Virus genome (UHGV): UHGV-0228105
Strand: one strand, 5' to 3'
Source: a virus
Length of the DNA: 6,965 nt
The notes under the pieces were generated by a model that was not told where the DNA came from, did no database searches, and worked only from the letters and a program-made list of their open reading frames with translations. The position numbers were made by a program, and so were the translations under genes. Below, piece after piece: positions 2,017 through 6,965 of this stretch. Within the stretch, counting starts at the first letter, position 1. Every line of letters starts with the position of its first letter.

Positions 2017-2211
2017 AAATCCGCCTCCGTTTTGATTAACGGGCATCATTATTGATCGATAAAAGTAATAGATAAATCATTTTCTACCTGAAAATCAGAT
2101 TATGTTTTTTCTGATTATTCTCAGAGAGGCAAAGCCATTGACGCATTTTTGCTATTGAAGCAATATTAAGACTCGTCATCCTGGCGATAAAAACTCCTTT
2201 GTCGTGTAAAA

Positions 2212-2247
2212 GCGCCTCCGGTAACAGCAATCGGGGGCGCTTTTTTT
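2212..2247 (+). terminator. Rho-independent terminator-like hairpin, strongest on the plus strand
   Basis: GCGCCTCCG (2212-2220) / CGGGGGCGC (2232-2240) form a 9-bp stem with one G-U wobble on the plus-strand RNA, 11-nt loop, followed by T7 (2241-2247). On the minus strand the same stem has a C-A mismatch and only a 4-U tail. Confidence 0.45.
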
Positions 2248-2444
2248 GCGCCTGTTTTTTTGTAAATGTTTTCGGGAACGCTCCAGTGATGAACGAAAAA
2301 CAACCTTATTCGACACTAAAAATTTTTATTCCTCAATATATCAATAACTTATAGTGGTGGTGATGGTGCCATAAAAATCAAAAAATGCGCCTTTTTCCGC
2401 GCCCCTCCGCCCCGTGGACAGGCTCACCCCGCCAGGAGGACCCG

Positions 2445-3060: not shown

Positions 3061-3300
3061 ACCTCTCCCCCTCTACCCCTTCTACCCAGCACCACCAAAA
3101 GCCAGCAATGGCGCACCTTTCAGCAGGGTAGAGGGCTTTTAATCCCCTTCTACCCGCCCTCTACCTGTCTACCTGGAATTGATAAAATCAGGTAGAAGAG
3201 GTAGAGGGCTTTTATTAGCCTTCGACCTGGCCCTCTACCCACCTATCATATTGAATAATATATATTTATTTACTTCAGGTAGAGGAGGTAGAGGGCTTTT
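3061..3300. repeat. Iteron array with AT-rich core: candidate origin of replication
   Basis: At least 11 copies of a 9-mer family in both orientations. GGTAGAGGGCTTTT occurs at 3127-3140, 3200-3213 and 3287-3300; degenerate copies GGTAGAAGA at 3191-3199 and GGTAGAGGA at 3278-3286. Inverse copies CCCTCTACC at 3069-3077, 3157-3165 and 3231-3239; CTTCTACCC at 3079-3087 and 3147-3155; TCTACC at 3168-3173. A 30-bp almost pure AT stretch lies at 3245-3275. The array ends 9 nt from the primase stop codon. Confidence 0.6.
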
Positions 3301-5586: not shown

Positions 5587-5815
5587 GGTGCGCCCCTTGA
5601 ATATCTGCGGTAAGAATTTTACCTGCCTCATTCAGCGCCATATCAGCACTAAGTTGCATAACCGCCAGCGAATGAGGAACGAAAGCCCCTGCATATTCTG
5701 TTTCACTGGTGGCGTGCTTATGCGCCCTGTCAGCAATAACAGAAATATCAATAAGCGCGAGCATCAGCGTAGTGAGCGCGGCGGCGGTTGCGTCCGGACG
5801 GATGTTATTGCACAT
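5579..5815 (-). CDS. Hypothetical small protein (78 aa from the proposed start)
   Basis: ORF-track ORF 5579..5872. Start placed at the ATG at 5815-5813 (MCNNIRPD...), preceded by GGAGGGG with an 8-nt spacer and overlapping the upstream stop at 5807-5805. The upstream ATG at 5872 lacks a Shine-Dalgarno. Confidence 0.5.
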   Translation of the reverse strand: MCNNIRPDATAAALTTLMLALIDISVIADRAHKHATSETEYAGAFVPHSLAVMQLSADMALNEAGKILTADIQGAHHA

Positions 5816-6038
5816 GGTGTACCCCTCCGCATTTTTTTTCGTTAGAAATAAGCGTTCTTCTTTCCTGTTCATCGCTCAGGAATACGCAGACCTCACCGCT
5901 AAGGCGTTTAAGTAAGCCGATGATTGCCCCTGATTCGCTGTCGGTCATCATGCCAGGGTAATCCTCTGCCAGTGCGCAAATAACTTCGATTTGGTGGGCG
6001 CGTTCTGCTGCCTGTTGTAGTGTGATTTCCTGGCTCAT
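5805..6038 (-). CDS. Hypothetical small protein (77 aa from the proposed start)
   Basis: ORF-track ORF 5805..6095. Start placed at the ATG at 6038-6036 (MSQEITLQQAAERAHQIEV...), preceded by AGGAGGT at about -8 and overlapping the upstream stop as ATGA. Confidence 0.55.
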   Translation of the reverse strand: MSQEITLQQAAERAHQIEVICALAEDYPGMMTDSESGAIIGLLKRLSGEVCVFLSDEQERRTLISNEKKCGGVHHVQ

Positions 6039-6229
6039 AAGCCTACCTCCTGACGAATACGGGCGGCAAATACAGCAACACAACCGGACGGGCAACGGTT
6101 ACGCGCTTCGCGTTCCGTCCAGGCGGTTACGTGGATGATTTGAGATTCTCCGGCACTCAGGGCCAGAAAACGCCACACAAAGGCCGTTTGTGTGTGTGCT
6201 AGTCGTGGAGTATGATTTACGGCAACCAT
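6035..6229 (-). CDS. Hypothetical small protein (64 aa), first gene of the minus-strand operon
   Basis: ORF-track ORF. GAGAGGT Shine-Dalgarno ~9 nt upstream of the ATG at 6229. Contains a Cys pair (RNRCPSGC). Lies ~95 nt downstream of the predicted promoter. Confidence 0.5.
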   Translation of the reverse strand: MVAVNHTPRLAHTQTAFVWRFLALSAGESQIIHVTAWTEREARNRCPSGCVAVFAARIRQEVGL

Positions 6230-6308
6230 AAATTTACCTCTCTATAGTGTTTGTGGTTAGAGGCCCTGCTAGTGGTAGCGACACTTGCGGGGCTTTGCAT
6301 TTATGAAC

Positions 6309-6361
6309 CCTGAGCAGCTCAGGTGTGGCCCACTATATGTTTTAGGTGTGGCCCACGTCAA
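6309..6361 (-). promoter_or_regulatory. Control region: predicted sigma70-like promoter for the minus-strand operon, overlapped by a perfect palindrome and two 13-bp direct repeats
   Basis: On the minus strand: -35 TTGACG (plus 6356-6361), 18-nt spacer, -10 TATAGT (plus 6332-6337). Direct repeats AGGTGTGGCCCAC at 6321-6333 and 6344-6356, each containing GTGG-N-CCAC, with 23 bp between starts. Perfect palindrome CCTGAGC-A-GCTCAGG at 6309-6323, at or just downstream of the predicted start site. Confidence 0.45.
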
Positions 6362-6422
6362 GGGTTTTATTTGCGCTTTTTCTGTGTATACTGTCCCCCA
6401 CCAATCAACAGGAGAAACAGCA

Positions 6423-6602
6423 ATGGCAACGGGTACAACAAACGCAAAATCACAAGCTTTAAAGGCTCGTGTACCGCATGAAATAGTTGACGCAATGGAA
6501 TCAGTGAAAGACTCAGGCGAAAGCACATCACAATTTATCATTACGTCAATGCAAGGCGAGATCAAACGCCGCCAGCGCCGCAAGGCCAAAGAAGCGGAAT
6601 AA
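6423..6602 (+). CDS. Small ribbon-helix-helix (CopG/Arc-like) DNA-binding protein, 59 aa; candidate repressor
   Basis: ATG at 6423 preceded by AGGAGA (6410-6415, 7-nt spacer). Sequence MATGTTNAKSQALKARVPHEIVDAMESVKDSGESTSQFIITSMQGEIKRRQRRKAKEAE fits strand (LKARVP), helix (HEIVDAMESVKDSG), helix (STSQFIITSMQGEI). It is the only plus-strand gene, divergent from the operon and convergent with alpA. The overlapping 153-aa minus ORF (6269..6730) is judged spurious. Confidence 0.55.
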   Translation: MATGTTNAKSQALKARVPHEIVDAMESVKDSGESTSQFIITSMQGEIKRRQRRKAKEAE

Positions 6603-6690
6603 TCCACCAGCAAACCACCACACTGATCACATTGCCCACCAGCCAGCAAATCGCTATGATGTTCGGGCTTATGTTTAGTGTTTTCCCATT

Positions 6691-6721
6691 GGCGACCTCT
6701 GATCCGGGTCGCCTTTGTTTT
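6691..6721 (+). terminator. Rho-independent terminator downstream of the RHH gene
   Basis: GGCGACC (6691-6697) / GGTCGCC (6707-6713) form a 7-bp perfect stem with a 9-nt loop, followed by TTTGTTTT (6714-6721). No U-tract on the minus-strand side, so it is unidirectional. Confidence 0.5.
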
Positions 6722-6740
6722 ATGTGTCATATGCTCCCCT

Positions 6741-6965
6741 TTACGCTGCCTTACCTGAATTAATGCGATCCCGGCTTTTAACCCATTCCATAACCTCGGA
6801 CAGCAGCCAACCTACAGAACGACCGCCCAGATTAAGGCGTGACGGAAATCGCCCTTTTTTCTCCAGTTCGTAGCGTGTAGTACGGCACACTCCAGTTAAC
6901 TTACGACATTCATCCTCACGGATTACGCGATCTGATAGTGATTGAAATTGTGTATTTTGATTCAT
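6741..6965 (-). CDS. alpA: AlpA-family (MerR-type HTH, excisionase-like) transcriptional regulator
   Basis: Translation contains the AlpA-type core CRKLTGVCRTTRYELEKKGRFPSRLNLGGRSVGWLLSEVMEWVKSR (compare the recalled pattern L-x-R-S-T-I-Y-x-L-x-x-G-x-FP-x-P-x-x-LGGR-x-V-GW-x-x-SE-V-x-x-W). The ATG falls exactly at the window edge (6965-6963), so the true N-terminus could lie outside the window. Confidence 0.85.
   Translation of the reverse strand: MNQNTQFQSLSDRVIREDECRKLTGVCRTTRYELEKKGRFPSRLNLGGRSVGWLLSEVMEWVKSRDRINSGKAA

Follow-up and report, generated by a model that had tools for sequence, protein, structure and literature searches.

Which protein reads the repeated sites over the early promoter of a phage satellite? 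The question is raised by the UHGV virus genome UHGV-0228105, a stretch of 6,965 nucleotides that is referred to below, at its full length, as the window. Since it carries alpA, an icd-like gene, DUF4222, a P4-type primase, origin iterons, PerC and a ClpP-capsid fusion, the window is, by its gene content, the regulatory and replication part of a capsid-forming phage-inducible chromosomal island (cf-PICI). AlpA is needed by Gram-negative PICIs, among them the capsid-forming type that passes from one species to another, and the mechanism by which these islands are silenced has been open since their first description. AlpA is the activator of the induction of EcCICFT073 (Fillol-Salom et al., 2018, PMC6092414). 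Gram-negative PICIs have no known repressor, and the global repressor has been called unclear (PMC6092414). A first-pass annotation of this DNA had proposed dual control of the early promoter, with a ribbon-helix-helix (RHH) protein bound to a palindrome and an AlpA-type or helper-encoded factor bound to two direct repeats. Here, we consider it probable that positions 6188-6422 constitute the control switch of an Escherichia coli phage satellite, in which a 59-amino-acid (aa) RHH protein of the previously uncharacterised YlcI/YnfO family would repress at three operators and a candidate antisense RNA would act as a second layer. The assignment of sites to proteins in the first-pass annotation appears to be inverted.

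Repeats, promoters and putative operators

The features named by the first-pass annotation are all present where it had placed them, that is, the 13-bp direct repeats AGGTGTGGCCCAC at 6321-6333 and 6344-6356, with a start-to-start distance of 23 bp, the perfect 7-1-7 palindrome CCTGAGC-A-GCTCAGG at 6309-6323, and the TTGACG/TATAGT promoter, which is the sole minus-strand sigma-70-type match in 5800-6965. How surprising are they? An exact 13-nt repeat within 40 nt was found in 0 of 200 dinucleotide shuffles of the window. For perfect palindromes with arms of at least 7, the window has 3 matches at 2 loci against 1.6 expected, a number reached by 24% of the shuffles, and such a palindrome occurs in 4% of shuffles of the 193-bp region. 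Therefore, the repeat, which is far beyond chance, needs an explanation, and the palindrome alone does not. Three things had been overlooked: the repeats are themselves imperfect palindromes (GTG-TGGCC-CAC); the divergent -10 is abutted by a further copy, a degenerate one; and 6224-6303, which makes up the left half of the region, forms a conserved structured element on its plus strand.

The comparison set comprises 10 loci from other genera and 80 from IMG/VR, covering at least 10 genera. In all of these, and in 91 related loci overall, the 11-bp site GTG-N5-CAC occurs three times at conserved positions. The promoters, sites and gene concerned are as follows in the window.

6332-6361, minus strand: operon promoter P_L, with -35 TTGACG at 6361-6356, an 18-bp spacer and -10 TATAGT at 6337-6332; predicted start at about 6324-6326
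6387-6392, plus strand: -10 TATACT of the predicted divergent promoter P_R, driving the ylcI-like gene; -35 weak or unclear
6323-6333, no strand: putative operator O1, GTGTGGCCCAC, core of the first repeat, overlapping the last 2 bp of the P_L -10 and the predicted start
6346-6356, no strand: putative operator O2, GTGTGGCCCAC, core of the second repeat, taking up the first 10 bp of the P_L spacer, with one base in common with the -35
6391-6401, no strand: putative operator O3, CTGTCCCCCAC, degenerate third copy, abutting or overlapping the P_R -10/+1 (TATACT, 6387-6392)
6423-6602, plus strand: ylcI-like gene, encoding the 59-aa YlcI/YnfO-family protein, a predicted RHH repressor

The P_L -35, a 17-18 bp spacer and a TAnnnT -10 are kept in 63 of the 65 unique regions, and O2 abuts TTGA(C/A/G)G in 63 of 65 as well. 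Since O2 abuts this conserved -35, which is followed by the spacer and TAnnnT, O2 fills the spacer of P_L and O1 covers its -10 and start. Relative to the ylcI-like ATG, O2 is fixed at -77 in the roughly 90 loci and O3 at -32 in all loci, while a copy with the locus-specific core, O1, lies 22-36 bp from O2 in every related locus, in an orientation that can flip with respect to O2. The position of the P_R -10, GTAT(A/G)(C/G)T, is constant in nearly all loci, and this -10 is joined to O3 as the P_L -10 is to O1. The control region of EcCICFT073, the prototype Gram-negative PICI, is 91% identical to that of the window, and its O1/O2/O3 set is identical.

In every operator class the O3 core equals the O2 core. 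The O3 variant of the window, with 2 core mismatches, is common to 15 of the 20 loci with the ALKARV-type protein described below, the perfect CTGTGGCCCAC being found in 5 of the 20, and the O3 of CFT073 is degenerate too (CTGTCCCCCAC). O3 is likely an autoregulatory site, and its conserved weak form may have been selected rather than have decayed. Neither near alpA or the origin nor elsewhere in the window and the CFT073 locus were further operator copies found beyond chance.

In addition, alpA does not follow the ylcI-like gene in four loci from several genera (L005, L006, L009 and L010), where an antirepressor-like or KilA-like open reading frame (ORF) or another gene takes its place. The three-operator module is unchanged in them and is, to judge from these sequences, portable between different element backbones.

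Which protein reads the operators?

The 5-bp core of the operators falls into at least 13 classes. Within a locus the cores are identical, although sometimes flipped, while the DNA between them diverges. The class is in nearly one-to-one correspondence with residues 12-17 of the adjacent 59-aa protein, as in the following pairs.

Residues ALKARV, operator core TGGCC
Residues SVTARI, operator core TAAGA
Residues QLNARF, operator core AATCG
Residues KLQARA, operator core GAATC
Residues QVSVRL, operator core AACAC
Residues QIVSRV, operator core AATGC
Residues MTTVRI, operator core AAATA
Residues TIAARV, operator core TTCAA
Residues QLASRV, operator core CTAAC
Residues KMSARV, operator core GCACC
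Residues LFTVRV, operator core ATACA

The agreement was measured as the adjusted Rand index (ARI) between operator class and each partition of 72 non-redundant loci, which span 13 operator classes.

YlcI residues 12 and 14: ARI 0.89
YlcI residues 12-17: ARI 0.81
YlcI C-terminal half: ARI 0.37
alpA-side flank: ARI 0.10
Icd-like alleles: ARI 0.09

Along the protein, the association with operator class has its maximum at residues 12 and 14, and R16 is invariant. Residues 12, 14 and 16 (i, i+2, i+4) match the alternate-residue pattern of a DNA-facing RHH beta-strand, a match that is correlative only. Residue 12 is Lys in proteins with a G-rich core and Gln in those with a core starting AA. The neighbouring genes pair more freely with the classes: three operator classes go with the Icd allele of the window and four with the commonest Icd cluster, four are also seen beside AlpA proteins that share 95-100% identity with that of the window, and many loci of the same architecture have no AlpA nearby. 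O2 does lie where an AlpA-binding element would be expected, between -35 and -10, as in the alpB and PA0807 promoters of P. aeruginosa (PMC7969949), but the sequence of the sites does not follow the AlpA allele, given the ARI of 0.10 for the alpA-side flank and four classes per near-identical AlpA. Consequently, the AlpA-type factor that had been placed on the direct repeats loses its support there, because the repeat cores track residues 12 and 14 of the RHH protein. It is most likely, on this co-variation, that the RHH protein reads the direct repeats and not the palindrome, and that AlpA does not read the repeats.

The RHH nature of the divergent 59-aa protein, also proposed at first pass, is supported by its modelled fold. 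The structure prediction, which is of the monomer only, places a beta-strand at about residues 11-17 and helices at 19-28 and 35-58, in line with the strand, helix, helix order of about 45 residues that defines the fold of MetJ/Arc/CopG transcription factors, and three repeated sites are consistent with RHH dimers on repeated sites. No Pfam family, and so no curated RHH model, matches the protein at E <=0.01, and the only match is to NCBIfam YlcI_YnfO_N. The sequence search against PDB chains returned noise only, and Foldseek gave no match. As tblastn of the protein against 50,697 phage genomes had no match, a close paralogue encoded by a helper is not supported at the sensitivity of tblastn.

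What is the palindrome?

6309-6323, no strand: perfect palindrome, the form taken in the window by a dyad that recurs next to O1, lying at about +2 to +16 of the predicted operon mRNA

The palindrome, which had been assigned to the RHH protein, is absent from two loci (L002 and L003) despite the same RHH protein and operators, and CFT073 and most E. coli relatives have a different, 8-5-8 dyad, CACCTTGA-N5-TCAAGGTG. Because its sequence varies in this way among elements with the same protein and operators, the palindrome cannot serve the RHH protein as its specific operator; nor does it follow the AlpA allele. What recurs is a dyad at this position. With arms of at least 6 bp, a dyad abuts the left flank of O1 in 48% of the unique loci against 2.8% of the shuffled controls, an enrichment of about 17-fold that is confined to loci with an O1-O2 spacing of 22-25 bp. 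In the 35-36 bp spacing class, O1 itself (GGTGC-atc-GCACC) takes the position of the dyad on the transcript. The hairpin has an energy of -8.2 kcal/mol in the window, -11.7 in CFT073 and -8 to -12 across the architectures, and in all of them it lies within a few nt of the predicted 5' end of the operon mRNA. It is with moderate confidence that we regard the palindrome as probably the 5'-terminal stem-loop of the P_L transcript.

Could the palindrome instead be without a function of its own, either as a product of chance or as a protein-binding extension of O1, a fourth, outward-facing pair of half-sites, and not an RNA hairpin? Chance alone should give one such palindrome in a sequence as long as the window, and in relatives the arms, CACCTT...AAGGTG, are similar to those of the operators. 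However, the excess over the shuffles argues for a function, as do the palindromic O1 at the same transcript position in the long-spacing class and a compensatory change, the window having CCTGAGC/GCTCAGG where its nearest relatives have CCTTGA/TCAAGG. We regard this alternative as unlikely, if a serious one.

A candidate antisense RNA over the icd-like gene

On its left, the region overlaps the start of the icd-like gene, and a further predicted promoter and a structured element were recognised there.

6035-6242, minus strand: icd-like gene, 64 aa, first gene of the operon, with ATG at 6229 and Shine-Dalgarno GAGAGG at 6242-6237
6224-6303, plus strand: candidate SymR-like cis-antisense RNA of about 80 nt, with stem-loops SL1 at 6224-6258 and SL2 at 6260-6296 and a U-rich tail
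6188-6216, plus strand: predicted promoter of the antisense RNA, P_as, with -35 TTGTGT at 6188-6193, 17 bp, and -10 TATGAT at 6211-6216; predicted start at about 6224

Lying between O1 and the icd-like start codon, 6224-6303 is the most conserved DNA of the region. RNAalifold, applied to 40 diverse copies, yields two stem-loops with double compensatory changes in 14 of 21 pairs. The loop of SL1 exposes an anti-Shine-Dalgarno CCUCU, complementary to the Shine-Dalgarno of the icd-like gene, and its stem covers the start codon, while SL2 is a GC-rich hairpin followed by the U-rich tail. Folded independently, the plus strand is more stable than the minus strand in 40 of 40 copies (mean -34.5 vs. 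-22.6 kcal/mol), and the z-scores for the window are -3.35 for plus and -1.38 for minus. In the alignment, 133 G.U cells are valid on the plus strand only and 2 on the minus strand only, a count that is biased, the structure having been derived on the plus strand, whereas the comparisons of minimum free energy (MFE) and z-score are less affected.

The predicted P_as sits inside the first codons of the icd-like gene. Upstream of SL1, nearly all unique loci have a TAnnnT whose distance from the stem-loop is fixed, though the N-termini of the Icd proteins are unrelated, and the loci with a poor P_as -35 have an extended -10 TG. Those unrelated N-termini (MVAVNHT..., MLNHTT..., MAELQHTQT..., MACSHDT...; 6035-6229 of the window and its relatives) all have an H-T/D-T-type motif near the start, the antisense strand of whose codons is the -10 of the predicted P_as. 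The conserved item at the Icd N-terminus seems, from these alignments, to be a DNA signal rather than a protein one.

Is the element related to a known RNA? The Rfam symR model gives 17.8 bits (E 0.24) with the window, and it matches the plus-strand element of five relatives over its full length, with 34-43 bits (maximum 42.8) and E of 6e-5 to 7e-3. One relative also has a weak match of this element to the sar RNA of P22 in Rfam. A covariance model built from the family finds the copies in the window, CFT073 and L001 (54-69 bits), and with filters off it finds the annotated symR of K-12 at its exact coordinates (25.5 bits), which it misses with default filters. The cis-antisense geometry agrees as well, for the predicted 5' end at 6224 lies 5 nt inside the icd-like gene, as that of K-12 symR (2836) lies 5 nt inside symE. 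The target differs: it is not an AbrB-fold SymE protein and matches phage_ICD_like. By analogy, the predicted RNA would work like SymR, while falling short of the Rfam membership threshold and having a different target. A C4/CI-type immunity RNA upstream of icd was considered and rejected, as C4/CI (RF01695) has no match in the window at E <=1, nor in 6180-6330 at E <=10, with L079 as a positive control at 72 bits. Esr41 and the other Rfam small RNA families of mobile elements were rejected likewise, since none match.

The same hairpins might function in the sense transcript, forming a structured 5' leader of the operon mRNA, that is, an attenuator, a processed C4/CI-like RNA or a stability element, with no antisense gene at all. 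P1 and P4 do place sense-strand C4/CI RNAs beside icd-type genes, L079 has a true C4 RNA downstream in its operon, and the minus strand of the window has an equally weak Rfam match, to the R1162 antisense RNA (E 0.27). However, the G.U cells and the MFE of all 40 copies favour the plus strand, the minus-strand z-score is only -1.38, C4 is not matched in the window, the plus strand has the conserved P_as -10 at a constant spacing from SL1, and the plus-strand similarity to SymR is reciprocal. We judge a sense-strand leader to be quite improbable, and 6224-6303 is better read, on its pattern of conservation, as a plus-strand antisense RNA gene. Of the dual control proposed at first pass, two layers thus probably exist, but the second would consist of the antisense RNA, encoded on the left side of the region, and not of another type of operator.

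A predicted switch and the points against it

In the favoured reading, P_L and P_R would be back-to-back sigma-70 promoters, P_L driving the operon from the icd-like gene to the primase and P_R the gene of the 59-aa RHH protein. A dimer of this protein would insert its two-stranded beta-ribbon into the major groove, where the invariant Arg16 would read the constant GTG/CAC arms and residues 12 and 14 the variable 5-bp core. With O1 and O2 occupied, RNA polymerase would be excluded from P_L and the island would be silent, and weaker binding at O3 would provide negative autoregulation, weakened in the lineage of the window. A transcript that escaped would be met by an antisense RNA fully complementary to the icd-like Shine-Dalgarno and start codon, which would block translation, with a probably polar effect on the downstream genes. 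As a speculation, AlpA-modified polymerase may read through the repressor gene into the operon, because alpA has the orientation of the operon and faces the repressor gene, because the terminator that follows the repressor gene lacks a U-run on the minus strand and has one on the plus strand alone, and because the AlpA of Pseudomonas is a processive antiterminator (PMC7969949).

Several points weigh against this reading. All of its support is computational and comparative: the analysis shows conservation, co-variation, a modelled fold and the strand of the RNA structure, and binding, repression, start sites and the way in which the helper phage or AlpA overrides the switch are predictions. The codons of the beta-strand lie only 110-175 bp from the operators, so that linkage alone would lead to co-inheritance; linkage is insufficient, however, because the three cores of a locus stay identical while their surroundings differ. 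The distance between the repeats had been taken for roughly two helical turns at first pass, but in the family the O1-O2 spacing varies (22-25 or 35-36 bp) and is no integral number of turns. P_R is without a convincing -35, and O3 is degenerate in the window. As for the RNA, beyond the bias of the G.U count, the symR scores (17.8 bits in the window, at most 42.8 in relatives) are far below the Rfam gathering score of 61 bits, and the tail is only moderately U-rich, with 4-6 T in 10. Finally, the published data on EcCICFT073 give AlpA as the activator and mention no repressor (PMC6092414).

A bolder version of this reading can be formulated, which is tentative and, with all its parts taken jointly, possible rather than probable. 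The YlcI/YnfO RHH protein would be the master repressor of Gram-negative PICIs and cf-PICIs, forming with its operators a swappable immunity cassette of at least 13 heteroimmune classes. Induction would proceed without inactivation of the repressor: AlpA, triggered by the helper, of antiterminator type and loaded at its own promoter, would drive transcription that shuts the convergent repressor gene by collision and antisense effects and continues into the operon, so that the repressed promoter is bypassed. A gate on the first gene, resembling a type I toxin-antitoxin pair, would be made up of the SymR-like RNA together with the Icd-like cell-division inhibitor.

Two other views of the operators fare far worse. 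That the constant GTG/CAC arms are read by a host, helper-phage or AlpA-type factor, with the cores irrelevant and the RHH match a case of hitch-hiking in a small recombining cassette, would fit the invariance of the arms across all classes and the linkage expected from the nearby beta-strand codons, but it is very improbable in view of the three identical, sometimes flipped cores amid diverging DNA, the concentration of protein variation at alternate strand positions, and residue-base trends that are chemically sensible (Lys with G, Gln with A). Repression by the RHH protein at the 7-1-7 palindrome, with AlpA or a helper-phage factor on the direct repeats, has in its favour the palindrome at the predicted start site, the known role of AlpA as activator of such islands (PMC6092414) and the position of the Pseudomonas AlpA-binding element, between -35 and -10, where O2 sits (PMC7969949), yet we give it hardly any credence, as the same RHH protein occurs without the palindrome or with a different dyad, the cores track RHH residues 12/14 and not AlpA (ARI 0.89 vs. 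0.10), near-identical AlpA copies go with four operator classes, and loci without a nearby AlpA keep the full three-site architecture.

Comparison with known systems

The overall design, a repressor with multiple operators at divergent promoters and an antisense RNA, is familiar from P22 immI, the lambdoid immunity regions and SymE/SymR. The immI region of P22 has the RHH repressors Mnt and Arc, the divergent promoters Pant and Pmnt, and the sar antisense RNA. The locus described here would resemble it in a small RHH repressor divergent from the operon that it represses, in operators overlapping the core promoter, and in a short cis-antisense RNA covering the ribosome-binding site of the downstream gene; in this comparison the P22 sequence took part only through the Rfam sar model.

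SymR (RF01809) has been proven to block translation as an antisense RNA; it is transcribed from a promoter within symE, and its effect is added to that of a transcriptional repressor (Kawano, Aravind and Storz, 2007, PMC1891008). Like SymR of K-12, the predicted RNA is one of about 77-80 nt with its promoter in the first codons of the target and its start 5 nt inside the coding sequence; it has two stem-loops, is complementary to the Shine-Dalgarno and AUG of the target, and would be layered over a transcriptional repressor, with covariance-model similarity in both directions. Unlike in SymE/SymR, the target is Icd-like rather than the AbrB-fold SymE, the repressor would be an element-encoded RHH protein rather than LexA, and the RNA is a predicted one.

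EcCICFT073 and EcCIEDL933 are elements of the same kind with the same module, in which alpA lies just upstream and is co-directional with the operon. The published accounts of them, including the cf-PICI preprints, describe AlpA only, in contrast to the present one; the divergent gene, the operators and the antisense RNA were not found in the searchable papers. In the searchable literature we found no repressor role for YlcI/YnfO, no repressor or operator of Gram-negative PICIs, no specificity classes and no antisense RNA. The gene downstream of alpA has been reported among the few variable regions between otherwise identical cf-PICIs, with its function unknown (10.1101/2025.02.11.637232), which fits a specificity cassette.

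As in P1 immI and P4 immunity, an Icd-type first gene of an early operon would be under post-transcriptional control by a small RNA. However, C4/CI are processed sense-strand RNAs that act on upstream or downstream targets, whereas the RNA predicted here is on the opposite strand. In L079, which has the same Icd allele type as the window, the minus strand contains a C4 RNA (RF01695, 72 bits) with its a1/b1 target and an isrK-like match. These C4-related features, at 885-972 and 1040-1089, are 400-600 nt into the operon, and the window has none of them. Since L079 has C4, some islands would stack RNA immunity of the P1/P4 type on this switch.

The likeness to lambdoid immunity regions consists in several operators flanking divergent promoters and in repressor-operator cassettes that reassort against the flanking genes. 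The reader here, however, would be a 59-aa RHH protein and not a helix-turn-helix cI/Cro pair, the element is a helper-dependent satellite, and we saw no evidence of SOS-cleavable features in the repressor.

What would follow from such a switch? A testable candidate for the silencing of these islands is offered, namely the 59-aa protein with three mapped predicted operators, a residue 12/14 code and the same module in EcCICFT073. If true, it would give the YlcI/YnfO family, a part of the "y-ome", its first function. The specificity classes imply that co-resident or incoming islands would be immune or non-immune to each other, and such immunity classes matter for satellite ecology and for the engineering of PICI-based delivery vehicles. 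The candidate antisense RNA would be an unannotated small-RNA gene, widespread in islands of Enterobacterales.

Other features of the island

In homologous E. coli loci, the annotation reads from right to left integrase, AlpA-type regulator, YlcI/YnfO family protein (on the opposite strand), Icd-like protein, hypothetical proteins, DUF4222, P4-type primase, PerC and the ClpP-protease/major-capsid fusion. Family scans on the ORFs of the window are consistent with this order. The primase (582 aa) and the ClpP-capsid fusion are annotated in the homologous loci, and the integrase falls outside the window. alpA, a P4-type primase-replicase, adjacent iterons and own capsid genes, which together characterise a cf-PICI, are all found. 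The icd-like protein matches NCBIfam NF033153 (phage_ICD_like) with E 5e-18 and is labelled Icd-like in the homologous loci. Two more features flank the switch on its right.

6741-6965, minus strand: alpA, 74 aa (Pfam PF05930, E 2e-16), convergent with the ylcI-like gene and co-directional with the operon
6691-6713, plus strand: predicted intrinsic terminator of the ylcI-like gene, GGCGACC...GGTCGCC followed by TTTGTTTT; no U-run on the minus strand

The RefSeq annotation of CFT073 has an Icd-like coding sequence of 474 nt (L093, 2276-2749), which spans the whole control region and overlaps the start of the ylcI-like gene. In many loci the icd frame stays open across the intergenic region and continues antisense to ylcI, giving ORFs of 153-344 aa (in the window, 6269-6730 on the minus strand). 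This long minus-strand ORF was rejected as a real gene, for its translation changes non-conservatively wherever the operators change. Likewise, because the translation is not conserved where the operators vary, the 474-nt coding sequence is probably an over-extended start call, an annotation problem that deserves to be flagged.

Directly downstream of the primase stop codon (3309), about 10 iterons, GGTAGAGGG(C)/CCCTCTACC, are arranged in both orientations at 3067-3300. They are probably the replication origin of the island, and they gave spurious microRNA matches in Rfam. In addition, a strong GC-rich hairpin, AAAAGCGCCTCCG...CGGGGGCGCTTTTTTTGC, is located at 2209-2248 (plus strand), with an A-run on its 5' side, a T-run on its 3' side and a weak match to ctRNA_p42d. 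Its form suggests an intrinsic terminator that works in both directions, placed between the PerC-side genes and the capsid module.

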